A stretch of DNA of 64,000 nucleotides from Chloroflexota bacterium (GTDB taxonomy: Bacteria; Chloroflexota; UBA11872; VXOZ01): assembly GCA_963663275.1 (NCBI GenBank), contig OY760183.1, positions 1,088,001-1,152,000 of the forward strand, given 5' to 3'. Both the position numbers and the translations under genes were made by a program. The first letter of the stretch is position 1, and each line of letters starts with the position of its first letter. The notes beneath the pieces are model-generated. The model ran no database searches. It had not been told where the DNA came from and worked only from the letters and a program-made list of their open reading frames with translations. This document shows positions 30,860-37,039 of this stretch, piece by piece.

Positions 30860-32290
30860 CTACGTAGTTCGCGGGGTCGGGGTGGCTTGGGCGGCGTTGA
30901 GTTGCATTTGGATGGCGTTTTGGGTGTCGATAGCGGCCTGGTGGGCGGTGGTTTGGCCGGTGAGGACGGGGAATATCAGGGAGGCCATGACGAGGAACGC
31001 CAGCCATTCCGGCGCATCGGCGTCGATGTACCGGCTCTGCTCCATACTCTCCACCAGCATGAGCGAGTCATTGACCGTAAGCGTCCGGTGGATGGTACGC
31101 AGCGCCTCCGCGCTGGTGCGCAGGGCCGGCAAGCTGAGGGTTTGGGCCGCGGCTTGCGCCAGCGGGTAGAGCGCCTCGTAGGCCGCGTCTGGCCGGCTGC
31201 CCGCCTCCGCGATGCCTACCATGTGTTCCACCAGCCCCCACGTGGCTGCTTCATTGCCCCGCGGCAGCGTGGCGAGTTCCAGCGGCGCGCGTCCGGCGCG
31301 ACGCCAGAAGGGTTCCGCTCTCACCAGGGCGCCCGCCATGCCAATCTGGCCGGAGAGCAGCATGTCTTCGGCCTTGTTCGTAAGGTTGAGCGTCAGATTG
31401 TCCGCGCGATAGTTTACCAGGCTCAGCGGCGGCGCGACTTCATGGGTCAGGATGAGATCCGCCTGAAATTGCAGCGCGGCGATGACGGCGGGGTGCGTCA
31501 CGTCCCATTCGCGGTCCTGGAAGAGCGTACTCCCCTCTTGCCAGGCCAGGGCAAAGAACGGCGGCACCAGCGGCGTTTGCAACACGCCCCAAACGCGGGG
31601 CGTACCGGTCGCGTCATTCAGCGACCGCGCCAGCGCGAGAAAATCCGTCAAGCGCCAATTCGCCTCCGGCAGCGGCGTACTCGTCTGCTTGAAGAGCGCG
31701 GGGTTATAGAGCAGGGTGCAGACCCCCGCGGAGAGCGGGAGGGCGTGCAGCGTGCCCCGGTACGCGCCGCTGCTCAGAATGTGCGGCCAGTAGCGATCGG
31801 TGGAGAAATCAAAGTCGCGGCGGGTGTACTCGGTCAGCGCGCGCGTCACGCCCTGCGCCGCCAGGGTAGGCAGCGCGAATTGATCCATCCAGACGAGATC
31901 GGGGCTGGTACCGGCGGCCGCGAGTTGCGTGACGGCTTCCGAGTAGGTCTGGCCGCCGGTGGGCCGCAGCGGCGTCTGCTTAACCTCATGCGCCGCCGCG
32001 AACGCCGCGTCCTTCAGCACTTCCGATATGGCGATGGTCTGGTTGCCGGAGGCGTCGGGCATGAGCAGGGTAAGCGGTACCGTGACGTCGACGGTGGGGG
32101 TAGCTTGGGCGGTTTCCATCGCATCTGAATCATCATCGTCGGACCGGAAAGGCCCACACCCGGCAACGGCGACAAAAGCGCCAAAGCCAACCGCGGCAAC
32201 CACGGGCGCGGCCAGCAGCAGTTTGCGTCGCGTCACGGTGTTGCGAGGACGGCGCCGGTCGGTTGCGGCGTCGCTCGACCCATCCGTCAT
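30860..32290 (-). CDS. Sugar-type ABC extracellular solute-binding lipoprotein (Tat)
   Basis: TRRKLL Tat motif, VAGC lipobox, AAGTSPDL, LLYNPALF. Confidence 0.85.
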   Translation of the reverse strand: MTDGSSDAATDRRRPRNTVTRRKLLLAAPVVAAVGFGAFVAVAGCGPFRSDDDDSDAMETAQATPTVDVTVPLTLLMPDASGNQTIAISEVLKDAAFAAAHEVKQTPLRPTGGQTYSEAVTQLAAAGTSPDLVWMDQFALPTLAAQGVTRALTEYTRRDFDFSTDRYWPHILSSGAYRGTLHALPLSAGVCTLLYNPALFKQTSTPLPEANWRLTDFLALARSLNDATGTPRVWGVLQTPLVPPFFALAWQEGSTLFQDREWDVTHPAVIAALQFQADLILTHEVAPPLSLVNYRADNLTLNLTNKAEDMLLSGQIGMAGALVRAEPFWRRAGRAPLELATLPRGNEAATWGLVEHMVGIAEAGSRPDAAYEALYPLAQAAAQTLSLPALRTSAEALRTIHRTLTVNDSLMLVESMEQSRYIDADAPEWLAFLVMASLIFPVLTGQTTAHQAAIDTQNAIQMQLNAAQATPTPRTT

Positions 32291-32684
32291 GGGCAATTCC
32301 TCCAATTAGCCCAGGTCTCTAGCGGTCGGCGCGGTTTCGTCTCAGCGCGCGCGGCGCGCACACGAAAAAGCAGCCCCCACGCGCCGCTTGCGCACGCCGG
32401 TGCGCTTGCTTTCGTGTCAGGCTGCGCTGTCTCACGCTCTTGCTCCACCCACAGGCCAGTTCACACTCTCTAGTATGCGGGAGAAAGCTGGGAATCTCCT
32501 GAGATTCTGCGGTAGATGTAGTAGGATTTTCAGCCGATTCCCCAGGGCTGCCGGCGGGGCTGCGCGTGCCGCCGCCCGGCTACGAACCGCACACGCCGGC
32601 GCGTTGGCCAAGACGGAGCGGCGGCGCGCCTCTTCTCGTATTCTATCATGCAGGCAACAGCCGGTGTAGGCGCGGCGCCGGCGG

Positions 32685-33947
32685 TCAGACCTCGCGGGCG
32701 GCGATGTCCGTGCGGCAGTAAGCGTCCTGAAACGCGATGCGCGCGAGGTTGTCGTAGGCGCGGGCGCGGGCGGCCGGCACGTTGGCGGCCTGGCCTACCG
32801 TCATCAGCACCCGGCCGCCGGCGGTGACCACCGTGTCGTCCGCCAAGGCGGTCCCGGCGTGAAAGAGCAGCGCGTCGTCATCCAACGTATCCAGTCCCGC
32901 TATGGGATGGCCGGTGGTATAGGAACCGGGATACCCGCCGGAGGCAAGCACTACGCCGCAGGTGGCCGCCGGGTCCCAGGTAACGTCGGCTTCCGCCAAA
33001 CGTCCATCCACCGCGGCCTGAAACACTGCCACCAGGTCCGCCTGCAAGCGCGGCAGGATTAGCTGCGCCTCCGGGTCGCCAAAGCGCGCGTTGAACTCCA
33101 CGATGCGCGGGCCGTCGTGGGTGAGCATCAGTTGGCCGTAGAGCACGCCTGCGTACGGATGCCCTTCCCGGGCCATGAGCGTGATCGTCCGCTCCATGAC
33201 TTCGTGGTGGATGTAGTCCAGGGTTTCCGGGTCTACGAACGGGGCCGGGGAGTAGCCGCCCATGCCGCCGGTGTTAGGCCCGGCGTCGCCGTCGTAGGCG
33301 CGCTTGTAGTCGCAGGCGGTAACCAGCGGCGTGATATTCGTGCCGTCCGCGAAGGCGAAAACCGAAATCTCGACGCCGCGCAAGCACTCCTCGATCACGA
33401 TCCGGTCGCCGGATTCGCCAAAGGCGCGGTCTGCCATGATGGCGTCCAACGCCCGCAGCGCCTCTTCACGGGAGTCGCAGACGAACACGCCCTTGCCGGC
33501 GGTCAGGCCGTCGGGCTTGAGCACGATGCTCTTGCACCGCGCTTGCTCGACGTAGGCCGCCGCCGCGTCCCGCTCGTTGAAAGCCGCAAAGTTGGCCGTG
33601 GGCAGGCCATGCCGTTGCATGAACTCCTTGGCCCAGATCTTGCTCCACTCCAGTTTCGCCGCGGCTTGCGTGGGGCCGAAGGCGGCCTGCCCGCAGGCCT
33701 GCAAGGCGTCCACCGCGCCGAGCGCCAGGGGATCGTCCTGCGCCACCACCGTGAGGTCGATGCCGTTTTCCCGCACCCAGGCGACCAGAGAGTCAACGTC
33801 GGTCGCCTCGATGGGCACGTTCTCCGCCAGGGCGGCCGTGCCGGCGTTGCCCGGCGCGGCGAAGAGCGTCGGCGCAAGCGGACTCTGCGCGCACTTCCAC
33901 GCGATTGCGTGCTCCCGTCCGCCGCCGCCGACAATCAGGATGCGCAT
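32685..33947 (-). CDS. purD: Phosphoribosylamine--glycine ligase
   Basis: GGGGREHA, APGNAG, LEWSK, DYKRAYDGDAGPNTGGMG, EFNARFGDPE, GGRV. Confidence 0.98.
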   Translation of the reverse strand: MRILIVGGGGREHAIAWKCAQSPLAPTLFAAPGNAGTAALAENVPIEATDVDSLVAWVRENGIDLTVVAQDDPLALGAVDALQACGQAAFGPTQAAAKLEWSKIWAKEFMQRHGLPTANFAAFNERDAAAAYVEQARCKSIVLKPDGLTAGKGVFVCDSREEALRALDAIMADRAFGESGDRIVIEECLRGVEISVFAFADGTNITPLVTACDYKRAYDGDAGPNTGGMGGYSPAPFVDPETLDYIHHEVMERTITLMAREGHPYAGVLYGQLMLTHDGPRIVEFNARFGDPEAQLILPRLQADLVAVFQAAVDGRLAEADVTWDPAATCGVVLASGGYPGSYTTGHPIAGLDTLDDDALLFHAGTALADDTVVTAGGRVLMTVGQAANVPAARARAYDNLARIAFQDAYCRTDIAAREV

Positions 33948-33954
33948 TAGCCGT

Positions 33955-34338
33955 CTACTCCAGCGATAGCAGTCCCGCGCGAAAGTCGATAGTCAAGCGC
34001 CTACCACGGAGGAAGTCCAAGCCCAACACGCCGTCAAAGCCTGCGCCTGGCGGCAGGGTGTGGCAAAGAATAGCAAGGTCGGTCACTACCTTACCCAACG
34101 CACAGAGCTTGTCGATCCGTATCTCGAAAACAGACTCTTTGCCGCTTGCCGTTGTAATCTCTACCGGCTTCTCTGTCGTGTCCGTTTCGCAGCCTACGTA
34201 CTGGAGGGCCTGTTCGCTGATTACTGTGGTAGTGGCGCCGGTGTCGAGCGCAAGATGGACGTTCACTTCTTTCAGCGGCCCGTGCAACGTGGCTGGAACG
34301 ACGATCAATCTGCCGTATGGGTTAAACGGGTAGCGCAT
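33955..34338 (-). CDS. Retropepsin-like (clan AA) aspartic protease, unit 3
   Basis: LALDTGA catalytic motif; GVLGLDFL. Confidence 0.9.
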   Translation of the reverse strand: MRYPFNPYGRLIVVPATLHGPLKEVNVHLALDTGATTTVISEQALQYVGCETDTTEKPVEITTASGKESVFEIRIDKLCALGKVVTDLAILCHTLPPGAGFDGVLGLDFLRGRRLTIDFRAGLLSLE

Positions 34339-34339
34339 C

Positions 34340-34576
34340 TTACAGAAGATAGTTCACGTCTGCGGGGAGCGCGCCCATGTAGAGTATTGCTACTCGCTTC
34401 AGATCTCGCCTCGTCGCTTCGCGGTATACTTCATCTTGGCTCTTGCTGTGGTAGAGTACGACGCCGCGTATCACCTCTTGCAGCGCGCTGAGTTCCGGTT
34501 CGTCAATCAGCACCCACTCGCCGTCGTACACCGCTTCCATTTCGGCGTAGGTCATTTTGGCTTCTTGCACTTTCAT
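34340..34576 (-). CDS. DUF5678-like small protein, unit 3
   Basis: YDGEWVLI..GVVLYH..VY; AGGAG SD; paralog of 34751 and 35514. Confidence 0.8.
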   Translation of the reverse strand: MKVQEAKMTYAEMEAVYDGEWVLIDEPELSALQEVIRGVVLYHSKSQDEVYREATRRDLKRVAILYMGALPADVNYLL

Positions 34577-34608
34577 GTCATTCTCCTCTCCCGGCATTCT
34601 CCCACATC

Positions 34609-34754
34609 TCAGCATGTCGCCTTCGACACTTCCCCTACAACAGTCTCTTCTGCTCCAGTGCCCACTGCTAGAGCGGCGGTCTCGCTTCTCTTGGGCAATT
34701 GAGCCCCATCGGATGGACAATCAGGTTGCGGCTTAGGTCAAACGGGACCCTCAT
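34609..34754 (-). pseudogene. Decayed aspartic protease, unit 2
   Basis: ATGA-coupled start MRVPFDLSRNLIVHP, then after a frameshift ETAALAVGTGAEETVV (DTG changed to GTG), then stop. Confidence 0.75.
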
Positions 34755-35002
34755 ATCAAGAATTCGACATCTTCCGGTCCCTTACCAAAGTAGTGCACGG
34801 CGATTTCAAAGGGCGCGCGGCCCTCCCGTTGCAATTGCCACAGCGCCTCATAGACGGCGACCCGGTCCTCATCGTGGGCGAGCACGACGCCGCGTACTAT
34901 CTCATTCATCGGCGTAAGATCCGGCTCGCCAACCAGCACCCACTCGCCGTCGTACGCCGCTTCTATCTCGGCGTAGGTCATCACCGGCGTTTGCGTCTTC
35001 AT
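34751..35002 (-). CDS. DUF5678-like small protein, unit 2
   Basis: First 62 aa differ from unit 1 at only 2 positions; AAGGAG SD. Confidence 0.82.
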   Translation of the reverse strand: MKTQTPVMTYAEIEAAYDGEWVLVGEPDLTPMNEIVRGVVLAHDEDRVAVYEALWQLQREGRAPFEIAVHYFGKGPEDVEFLI

Positions 35003-35133
35003 CGCAATCTCGCTCCTTGAGTCCTTGCCTCATGCGGGCACCAGACCGGCGTTTCCCTGCGCGCCCGACACTTCCAAGTATACCCAATCGCGCGCGCCGT
35101 CAGCCCACACCGCTAGCCGGGCGCATTAGCCGT

Positions 35134-35517
35134 CTAGTCCAGTTCCAGCAGACCCGCGCGAAAGTCGATTGTCAAGCGTCTACCACGGAGGAAGTCCAAG
35201 CCCAACACGCCGTCTACCGCGGCCCGCGACGGCAGCGTGTGGCAGAGAACGCGCAGGTTAGTGGCTTCTTTCCCCAGCGCCTCGATCTTTTCTACCGTCA
35301 TCATGGGAACAGTCAACGCGCCGCCGCCTGTGAGGATTTGCGCTCCTTCTCCCGGTGTAGAAAGGCTATACCCAAGCGATAGCGCGATCTCTCTGCTCAC
35401 TACGGTTCGCGTGGCGCCGGTGTCGAGCGCTAGCCGGGCGGTTTTAGTACTGTTGCGTCGGTAAAGCCGGGCCGGAATGATAATCAGGTAACCGCGTGGA
35501 TCGAACCGGACGCTCAT
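35134..35517 (-). CDS. Retropepsin-like (clan AA) aspartic protease, unit 1
   Basis: LALDTGA; GVLGLDFL; ATGA overlap with upstream gene. Confidence 0.9.
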   Translation of the reverse strand: MSVRFDPRGYLIIIPARLYRRNSTKTARLALDTGATRTVVSREIALSLGYSLSTPGEGAQILTGGGALTVPMMTVEKIEALGKEATNLRVLCHTLPSRAAVDGVLGLDFLRGRRLTIDFRAGLLELD

Positions 35518-35765
35518 ATTAGTATTTCAACGTCATCCGAAACCTCACCAAAGTACCACACAGCGACATGGTTGGGTTCGCGGCCCTCCCGTTGCAATTG
35601 CCACAGCGCCTCATAGACGGCGACCCGGTCTTCATCGTGGGCGAGCACGACGCCGCGTACTATCTCATTCATCGGCGTAAGATCCGGTTCGCCAACCAGC
35701 ACCCACTCGCCGTCGTACGCCGCTTCCATCTCGGCGTAGGTCATCACCGTCGTTTGTGTCTTCAT
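35514..35765 (-). CDS. DUF5678-like small protein, unit 1
   Basis: YDGEWVLV..GVVLAH..VY; GAGGAG SD. Confidence 0.82.
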   Translation of the reverse strand: MKTQTTVMTYAEMEAAYDGEWVLVGEPDLTPMNEIVRGVVLAHDEDRVAVYEALWQLQREGREPNHVAVWYFGEVSDDVEILI

Positions 35766-35998
35766 GGTTATTTCGCTCCTCTTGTCCTGCTTATAGATGA
35801 TAGCAGACAGCCCGCGCCTTGCGTGCCGGTGCCGCGCTCAGGTTCCCGCCAGCGCGCCCACTCTCGCCGCTGTCTCCGGGTGGGCCGCCCTGCTATACTG
35901 GCCGCAAAGGAAAGCCGAGCAGGCGCGGCGTCCCGGCCCACAGTCCGCAACACGGCCGCGGGTCTTCGCGCCGCACATCAAACATGAGGAGGCAATCC

Positions 35999-37039
35999 AT
36001 GCGCAGCGTGCACAGAGCGCGCGTACTCCTGGCGGCGCTCGTGGCCGTCGTTATCGCCGTGGGCTGTATGCAAGCGCCGCCGCGAGAGCAGGAAGAAGCC
36101 GCGCCGCAGCCGGAGACCATCATCTTCAACGACCTGTCGTGGGATAGCGCCCGCGTGCAGAACCGCATCGCGCAGTTCATCGTGGAAAAAGGCTACGGCT
36201 ACGCCACCGGCGTGGTTGCCGGACCCTCAGTGCCGCTGATGGAAGGCCTCAGGCGGGGCGAAAGCCACGTGACCATGGAAGTCTGGCTGCCCAATCAGAG
36301 CGAGGCCTGGGGAGCGGCGGAGGCCGCCGGCGAAGTGGTCGCGTTGGGTGAGACTCTGAACGGCATCGAGCAAGCCGCGTTCATGATACCGGCGTATCTT
36401 CAGGATGCGTATCCCGAACTCGACAGCGTTGAAGACCTGAAGGAAGAGCAGTACCAAAAGCTGTTCGCCACCGCCGAGAGCGACGGCAAGATTCGCTTTC
36501 TTTCGTGCCCGGCCGGCTGGGGCTGCGAGGCCGTGAACGCCGCCAAAGTGGCGGGCTACGGTCTTGCCGATCACGTGCAGATCGTCGTGCCGGAGTCCGA
36601 CAAGGCGTTGAACGACGACGCATTTGCCCGCTATGCGGCGGGTGAGCCGTGGATTGGCTACCTCTCCGGCGAAATGCCCGCCGCGCTCAAGCTGGACATG
36701 GTGGCGCTGCAAGAGCCGCCCTACAGCGACGAGTGCTGGGCCTCCACCAAGGCCTGCGCGTATGAGGATACGAAAGTTGTGATTGGGGTGCGCGCCGAAC
36801 TGCTCGCCAACGCGCCCGAGGTGGCGGCCATGCTGCAAAACTGGGACATGAGCATCGAGCGCTACCGGGTCATCGGGGCCTGGCAGGTCGATAACGGGGC
36901 CGGCCCGGCGGACGCCGCGCTGTGGTGGCTGCAAAACAACGCGGATACCTGGAGCCGGTGGGTAACGCCGGAGGCGGCCGCCGCCGTCCAGGCCGCGCTG
37001 GACGCCGGTGAAATCCCCGACGGCTGGCCGGCGGAATAG
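35999..37039 (+). CDS. Glycine betaine/proline ABC substrate-binding lipoprotein (ProX/OpuAC-like)
   Basis: AVGC lipobox; WDSA, MEVW.PN, CPAGWGC, W..WV motifs. Confidence 0.88.
   Translation: MRSVHRARVLLAALVAVVIAVGCMQAPPREQEEAAPQPETIIFNDLSWDSARVQNRIAQFIVEKGYGYATGVVAGPSVPLMEGLRRGESHVTMEVWLPNQSEAWGAAEAAGEVVALGETLNGIEQAAFMIPAYLQDAYPELDSVEDLKEEQYQKLFATAESDGKIRFLSCPAGWGCEAVNAAKVAGYGLADHVQIVVPESDKALNDDAFARYAAGEPWIGYLSGEMPAALKLDMVALQEPPYSDECWASTKACAYEDTKVVIGVRAELLANAPEVAAMLQNWDMSIERYRVIGAWQVDNGAGPADAALWWLQNNADTWSRWVTPEAAAAVQAALDAGEIPDGWPAE

Follow-up and report, generated by a model that had tools for sequence, protein, structure and literature searches.

What is a row of tiny gene pairs doing directly in front of purD? 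The question is raised by a 64,000-nucleotide (nt) stretch of a Chloroflexota bacterium genome (GenBank assembly GCA_963663275.1, contig OY760183.1, positions 1,088,001 to 1,152,000; hereafter the window). Its minus strand carries, between positions 33955 and 35765, three units in which a protease gene (B) comes after a small gene (A), immediately before purD (Table 1). A reading made from the letters alone, without database searches (the sequence-only reading), had described a three-unit tandem array of this kind at the head of purD, with ATGA or 1-nt coupling and two DTG-bearing proteases, and its coordinates are borne out. It also had the distance to purD exactly right: 7 nt separate the stop codon of the last protease gene (33955-33957) from the purD ATG (33945-33947), purD itself being identified by its GARS_N, GARS_A and GARS_C domains. 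It had further credited each unit with a 127-amino-acid (aa) protease; this is so for B1 and B3, but the third protease, B2, is a stub and not a 127-aa gene. Our best reading, in which we place about half of our belief, is that B is a protease and A its cognate inhibitor, and that the two would act in the manner of a toxin-antitoxin module.

B is a retropepsin-like aspartic protease (clan AA) by Pfam, motif and fold. Both B1 and B3 match PF13975 and PF13650 above the cut-offs (PF13975: B3, 2.2e-13 and 51.1 bits against a cut-off of 28.2; B1, 7.1e-11 and 43 bits; PF13650: B1, 2.2e-10) and TIGR02281 weakly, and both have the motif LALDTGAT. The PADLOC model PDC-M08B is matched as well (B3, 3e-14 over 93/127 profile positions; B1, 6.6e-11). 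An AlphaFold model of B3 (predicted local distance difference test [pLDDT] 91.7) was compared with solved structures using Foldseek; the top match was ApRick, a bacterial retropepsin-like protease (PMC4140852; 5c9f_A, E 1.3e-6, TMq 0.78, root-mean-square deviation 2.4 over 127 columns), and 220 PDB chains were found at E <= 0.001, many of them HIV-1 protease, with HIV-1 and HIV-2 at about E 1e-4. A profile of 20 B relatives likewise retrieved the protease domains of DDI1 (8.6e-4) and ApRick (3.4e-3) among solved structures. The family comprises 1058 clusters (90% identity) at E <= 0.001, nearly all of 127 aa, and D-[TS]-G-A is kept in 79 of the 79 relatives that were fetched. From its motif and fold B looks catalytically competent and, like its relatives, it is presumably a homodimer. 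It is of note that one distant relative (L108:1581-1994), whose gene has an ATGA overlap with an A-like gene, has NTG instead of DTG and may be inactive.

Is the pairing with A a peculiarity of this array? Co-occurrence of homologs had been proposed as a check in the sequence-only reading. A scan of species genomes (one genome per species) gave 446 B relatives, from which 79 loci were kept; they belong to Chloroflexota, Planctomycetota, Acidobacteriota, Gemmatimonadota, Nitrospirota, Cyanobacteria, Spirochaetia and other groups. An open reading frame (ORF) matching the A profile (E <= 2.3e-19; the profile was built from sequences that include 43 of the 78 loci) lies directly upstream and ends at the protease start in 78 of the 79. 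The remaining locus has only 94 nt of upstream sequence, and among the 78 there is one that runs into the end of its contig. In the window and in relatives alike, the two small genes are adjacent and co-oriented, with A first, and are coupled by ATGA or a 1-nt gap; the A-B gap is -4 (ATGA) in 56 of the 78 loci. Since the 3.53-Mb single-contig genome has no copies of A or B besides those of the array, and the pair recurs at 78 of 79 unrelated loci, the pairing is far beyond chance. A-B is thus a conserved gene pair. In an even sample of 401 Chloroflexota genomes, B was found in 19 genomes representing 9 of 217 genera (the 19 include a weak match in an unpublished genome, G363) and A in 24; strong matches always adjoin their partner, except for one B at a contig start. 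More distant A-B pairs are present in L103, L106 and L108. Two apparent natural A-B fusions did not stand up: P0299, the sole protein from a search at longer lengths, looks like a frameshifted gene call, and P0183 proved to be a fusion of A with a B that has lost half its length. Genuine fusions, which may exist, would measure about 200 aa and belong to the near-length range, in which the best 120 of the 1058 matches were inspected.

Partner A is harder to annotate. The copies in the window have no match in Pfam, even at E 10, and none in NCBIfam, PADLOC or PHROGs; the term DUF5678-like, applied to them in the sequence-only reading, holds for the family. Of 46 aligned A relatives, 22 match DUF5678 (PF18929) at E <= 1 (best 4.9e-5), and both A copies of locus L056 exceed the PF18929 cut-off of 23.2, with 33.4 and 23.5 bits; the ESM Atlas clusters nearest A3 are named 'putative DUF5678 domain-containing protein' (score 0.94). 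PDC-M08A, the PADLOC companion of PDC-M08B, is matched weakly by 6 of the 46 (best 4.3e-4). An exhaustive search with the A profile gave 876 clusters (50% identity) at E <= 0.001. The model of A (A1; pLDDT 91.2, predicted template modeling score 0.78) has the order beta-alpha-beta-beta-alpha-beta. Fold searches with it reached no convincing match, with a best E of 0.9 (Foldseek) and a best Z of 3.9 among 48,161 chains (VIA-align), which we do not take as a claim of a new fold, and the A profile found only noise among PDB sequences (best E 0.064), that is, no solved relative. The protein ends at the same position throughout the family in a tail of about 10 residues, the last residue being Leu in 71 of 78 loci and Ile in 5. 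In the window, A1, A2 and A3 end in ...VEILI, ...VEFLI and ...VNYLL, and the hydrophobic C-terminal strands EILI, EFLI and NYLL are as the sequence-only reading gave them.

Longer proteins and unusual gene orders bear on how A might work. Of the 13 longer proteins inspected, eight, with lengths of 160-207 aa, are head-to-tail A-A fusions (P0149, P0150, P0152, P0153, P0156, P0157, P0191 and P0269), and a locus in a Deltaproteobacteria metagenome-assembled genome (MAG; L056:34-877) has the gene order A-A-B. These arrangements suggest that A probably acts as a dimer. Distant A-like proteins with a Cys-rich N-terminal extension (…CGVDCDCGCPYTG…) and without a protease gene occur at L100:1550-1930, L101:1608-2066, L104 and L105:1732-2106; at two of these four loci the A-like gene lies just 3' of a lipoamide-dehydrogenase-like gene. 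Judged by sequence, the DUF5678-like domain seems to be put to another use in these proteins. In one further protein, P0198 (147 aa), the A-like domain follows an extra N-terminal stretch, which could reflect a fusion or a merged gene call; this stretch may resemble the N-terminus of Phd/YefM-type antitoxins.

Does A bind B and, if so, where? A complex of two B3 and two A3 chains was modeled, each protein with its own alignment, together with three controls. The 2:2 model scored 0.93 (runs 0.92, 0.93 and 0.93) against 0.36 for the best of the three controls; its runs share at least 97% of contacts, and the partner pLDDT is at least 90. In calibration 116 of 157 solved complexes attained this mark, as did 2 of 215 mismatched pairs; the calibration is rough for multi-copy, own-alignment jobs such as this one. 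The result is unlikely to echo a known complex structure because no relative of A has a solved structure. The model supports binding of A to B. On the B3 side, the predicted contacts are residues 13-17, 22-28, Asp32, 34-37 (Gly34-Thr37), the flap (59-64), 79-82, His93 and 97-102, with none beyond 104; on the A3 side they fall in the hairpin 31-35, in parts of helix 2, in the last strand (59-66) and in the tail (69-78). In our reading, the B sheet is continued by the last strand of A, and the A tail lies in the substrate cleft. Contacts with Asp32, Gly34-Thr37 and the flap, and their absence past residue 104, favor a partner that fills the substrate cleft rather than one that takes the place of the C-terminal strand of the protease dimer. 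The sequence-only reading had foreseen a cognate partner acting through its C-terminal segment, which agrees with the placing of A residues 59-66 and 69-78 against B in the model and with the subtype differences described below; the terminal strands through which, as it also noted, retropepsin homodimers assemble are disfavored as the point of action by the modeled contacts.

The close relatives in the genus provide comparative evidence on specificity. The 16 other genomes of the genus each have one to five A genes, gathered at a single site. Of the 15 loci fetched, 14 have the array, most of its A genes accompanied by a B gene, at the head of purD, from which it is separated by about 10 nt. 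Two subtypes can be told apart, an 83-aa A that goes with a B1-type protease and a 78-aa A that goes with a B3-type protease, and the subtypes of A and B concord in 22 of 22 pairs in the genus. Between subtypes, residues 1-44 of A are 77% identical, about as within subtypes (78-83%), whereas the last 20 residues are 41% identical between and 68-72% within; the corresponding values for B are 53% and 73-76%. A1 and A2 show the same division. The two proteins are 86% identical, and their DNA agrees at 175 of 180 nt over the first 60 codons but at only 49 of 72 nt over the last 24 codons including the stop; in sequence the A1/A2 pair is a mosaic with its break at about codon 61. By these subtype identities and the A1/A2 mosaic, the subtypes diverge in just that segment of A which the model puts in contact with B, which lends comparative support to the A C-terminus as the putative specificity determinant.

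The array itself has evidently been rearranged. The DNA of B1 and B3 is about 55% identical except for a patch of about 97 nt, with 56 of 60 nt identical at its core, which runs through the final 27 codons and the stop codon, across the 7-nt spacer and into the two opening codons of purD, ATGCGC. The junction 3' of B1 (35121-35133) reads TAG-ACGGCTA-ATGCGC, the same as that of B3 (33942-33954), and opens an 8-codon frame; by this sequence identity, it is a relic of the purD start stranded behind B1. Most relatives have the order [A3-B3][A1-B1]-purD, and the window has [A1-B1][A2][A3-B3]-purD. The shared junction and the purD relic point to reshuffling of the array by recombination at the B 3' end/purD junction. 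A repeat match that suggested a piece of purD inside the B2 remnant was due to shared ...LIV... codons of the B 5' end. In the B2 frame, homology to the protease is limited to the first 15 or so codons, as judged by alignment to B1, and the rest is unrelated DNA.

Which of the two genes can be lost? In the array, A copies are kept and B copies are easily lost: unit 2 has the B2 stub next to an intact A2. Among the other genus genomes, G011 has five A genes and three B genes (two units are without an intact B), and in G008 only A is present. In L033 (= G007), L048 and L060, one in-frame stop codon interrupts B while the adjacent A is intact; B is half-deleted in the P0183 fusion, and it is decayed in the distant loci L102 and L107. 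The converse, an intact B without A, was seen in none of the 78 loci that could be assessed. Such one-sided decay would be expected of a B that does harm when A is missing, and it would also fit a B that is simply of no use by itself.

Elsewhere the module turns up in very varied surroundings. It lies between argG and an aminotransferase gene in L016 and L018 (argG is also upstream in L063 and L071, where no aminotransferase was found downstream), between gltB and gltD in L021 and between sufBD and sufS in L057; a methylmalonyl-CoA mutase gene is upstream in L025 and L044, and cstA is downstream in L025, L044, L045 and L082. The neighboring genes have no pathway in common across loci. The module seems to embed in operons of any kind, inserting inside housekeeping operons. 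In L021, L057 and L016/L018 it separates two genes of one pathway and is only a few bases away from them. Near-identical A-B modules occur in L019, L020 and L030, all with a sulfatase gene downstream and, where upstream sequence is present (L019 and L020), with a gene for a DUF7133/GSDH protein upstream; the MAGs concerned are labeled Gemmatimonadota and Latescibacterota, so that the likeness reflects either recent transfer of a larger block or a mismatch in binning or labeling.

How might such a module work? We propose that each unit encodes a cytoplasmic retropepsin-type protease, B, and a cognate small binding protein, A. A would be a compact alpha/beta domain whose last beta-strand, according to the model, docks on the B strand leading to the catalytic Asp, with its conserved and nearly always Leu-ended C-terminal tail in the substrate cleft against Asp32 and the flap. 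A would thereby hold B inactive, free B would cleave cellular proteins, and the pair would behave as a toxin-antitoxin or addiction module. The module has no long regulatory region of its own; it would ride in host operons, here at the head of purD, and its array would grow, shrink and shuffle by recombination between units. The toxin-antitoxin reading is drawn from the asymmetry of gene decay and from the distribution; for the latter we count both its patchiness (9 of 217 genera) and the copy number of one to five A genes per genus genome. A bolder version, which we offer only tentatively and think on balance improbable, is that the pair represents a new class of protease-based addiction or abortive-infection module, in which an HIV-protease-like dimer would be silenced by two product-like partner tails. 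Such modules would spread by embedding in essential operons, borrowing the promoters and leaving no clean deletion, and arrays of diverged cognate pairs with spare antidotes would record conflict between units.

Several observations weigh against a cognate inhibitor in a toxin-antitoxin-like module. The support for inhibition and toxicity is computational throughout. The contact list covers contacts between A and B, and a tail in the cleft would suit a substrate or an activating cofactor no less than an inhibitor. Selection of the 79 loci went by way of B, which makes them blind to orphan A genes, and the asymmetry amounts to a modest number of events. No recognizable DNA-binding domain was found in A by Pfam and fold searches, so that autoregulation in the style of type II systems is unsupported. 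Outside the genus, housekeeping genes make up most of the flanking ORFs; they often share the strand of the pair and lie no more than a few tens of bases from it. The 123 flanking ORFs include few genes of toxin-antitoxin, defense or mobile type (MqsA twice; PIN, PstI endonuclease and transposase once each). Inheritance at one site, by purD, is stable in 14 of 15 genus loci; in viral contigs, 69 pattern matches yielded no relative, and PLSDB plasmids gave no match at E 1e-5.

These observations lead to the other explanations. Some of them would sit comfortably with a constitutive, non-toxic proteolytic complex of housekeeping or regulatory function, in which A is an adaptor, activator or specificity subunit and B is useless without A. 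The module's place within housekeeping operons of many phyla, its vertical inheritance at the purD site and the catalytic motif kept in every B relative fetched are all as this would have it, and a cytoplasmic retropepsin-like regulator, RimB, is reported for Pseudomonas (PMC11957791). A housekeeping complex would, however, hardly be expected in so few genera of the phylum sample, in one to five copies with diversified cognate subtypes, with repeated pseudogenization of B, or among neighbor genes without a shared pathway, and we consider it rather unlikely, if to be taken seriously. The PADLOC label raises the alternative of anti-phage defense by abortive infection, in which infection would release or activate the protease. 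The match of B to PDC-M08B and the weak matches of some A relatives to PDC-M08A speak for it, as does the derivation of the PDC set from genes embedded in BREX, DISARM and type I restriction-modification systems; the same source presents the PDC entries as untested candidates (10.1101/2024.01.29.577857). Moreover, the A copies of the window match no PADLOC model, the array is flanked by purD and an OpuAC gene with no defense genes beside it, and elsewhere a restriction enzyme accounts for one of the 123 flanking ORFs. The habit of embedding in any operon could by itself explain presence in defense operons, and with it the entry in the PADLOC candidate list. We judge the defense explanation unlikely.

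A could, finally, be the substrate or precursor of B, which would trim the C-terminal tail to give mature A or a free short peptide. A tail modeled inside the catalytic cleft and a strongly conserved C-terminus are what such processing would predict; set against this, the tail has no more than about 10 residues and the end of A is constant in position across the family, the flanking ORFs scanned include no export or modification genes that go with the pair, and orphan A genes stay intact without a protease. This we regard as very unlikely.

Table 1. Features of the array and its surroundings (window coordinates)
Feature	Position	Strand	Description
A1	35514..35765	-	83-aa DUF5678-like partner of unit 1; ORF; no Pfam match of its own, relatives match PF18929
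B1	35134..35517	-	127-aa retropepsin-like aspartic protease of unit 1; ATGA overlap with A1
A2	34751..35002	-	83-aa orphan partner gene, intact
B2 remnant	34668..34754	-	28-codon frame; ATGA overlap with A2; by translation and alignment to B1 5' end
A3	34340..34576	-	78-aa DUF5678-like partner, second subtype
B3	33955..34338	-	127-aa retropepsin-like aspartic protease; 1 nt past A3, 7 nt before purD
purD	32685..33947	-	Phosphoribosylglycinamide synthetase; downstream neighbor; GARS_A 1e-75, with GARS_N and GARS_C
Recombination patch	35121..35214	-	B1 last 27 codons, stop, 7-nt spacer and ATGCGC; ~93% identical to 33942-34035
ABC substrate-binding protein, glycine-betaine type	35819..37039	+	Divergent from A1; PF04069 OpuAC 5.9e-40; start codon uncertain

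As to expression, the array and purD are probably co-transcribed. On inspection of the sequence, our reading is that the purD Shine-Dalgarno sequence (GGAG) would lie within the last codons of B3; the ATG taken as the start of A3 in the 78-aa reading is preceded by an AGGAG-like site. A scan for promoters and terminators gave one promoter-like and one terminator-like site, no more than in shuffled sequences, and comparison of the regions upstream of the three A genes revealed no common conserved operator and no conserved palindrome. Genes for solute-binding proteins of ABC transporters flank the array and purD on both sides, SBP_bac_1 (30860-32305) on one and OpuAC on the other, the latter with about 50 nt between the listed ORF starts of OpuAC and A1.

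What would follow if the preferred reading, a cognate inhibitor pair resembling a toxin-antitoxin module, is right? The paired family (at least 1058 B clusters and 876 A clusters) would offer a cheaply testable hypothesis, that of a natural retropepsin inhibitor that blocks the enzyme via its C-terminal tail. Two cognate subtypes and an orphan partner in one array make a ready-made specificity experiment. Should B prove toxic, the pair would be the first toxin-antitoxin-like system whose toxin is an aspartic protease, and DUF5678 and PADLOC PDC-M08 would acquire a function. Literature searches found no paper on the function of a DUF5678-retropepsin pair, no toxin-antitoxin system with an aspartic-protease toxin, and the name PDC-M08 in no searchable paper.

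How does the module compare with known systems? Co-transcribed protease/inhibitor pairs are exemplified by staphopain-staphostatin and yeast proteinase A-IA3. With these and type II toxin-antitoxin systems, taken as one group, the module shares a small protein encoded beside the protease and predicted by our model to sit in the active-site cleft, a putative antidote gene that comes first, a stop/start overlap, cognate subtypes, orphan copies of the putative antidote and a patchy distribution; it differs in that A lacks a recognizable DNA-binding domain and has a fold that matches no solved inhibitor. The closest solved fold to B is that of ApRick/APRc (RC1339 of Rickettsia conorii; PDB 5c9b, 5c9d and 5c9f), likewise one retropepsin domain whose active site is of the DTG type. 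APRc is anchored in the membrane and undergoes autoprocessing, and we know of no report of a DUF5678 partner for it; B, in contrast, consists of the bare domain (127 aa), lacks a hydrophobic N-terminal segment and always has an A gene upstream. The protease-like domain of Ddi1 and HIV-1 protease (MEROPS clan AA) have the D-T-G-A and G-L-D-F-L motifs in common with B, at about 20% identity, but B is bacterial and chromosomal and has a dedicated partner. According to a clan AA review, little is known about the single-domain retropepsins of prokaryotes, which are widespread in bacteria and archaea (PMC2642776).

The nearest relative by gene content is PDC-M08, one of 145 untested phage defense candidates found by guilt-by-embedding in BREX, DISARM and type I restriction-modification systems (10.1101/2024.01.29.577857). 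It too pairs the gene of a small protein with that of a protease of about 127 aa, and B and some A relatives match its models; the A copies of the window miss PDC-M08A, and the locus is neither embedded in nor next to a defense system. The pair had been called undescribed in the sequence-only reading. This is right insofar as no functional study was found, but PADLOC-DB already holds models (PDC-M08A/PDC-M08B) for such a pair. To these the window adds a tandem array of two subtypes, a mosaic orphan partner, a conserved junction with purD and an asymmetry in decay.

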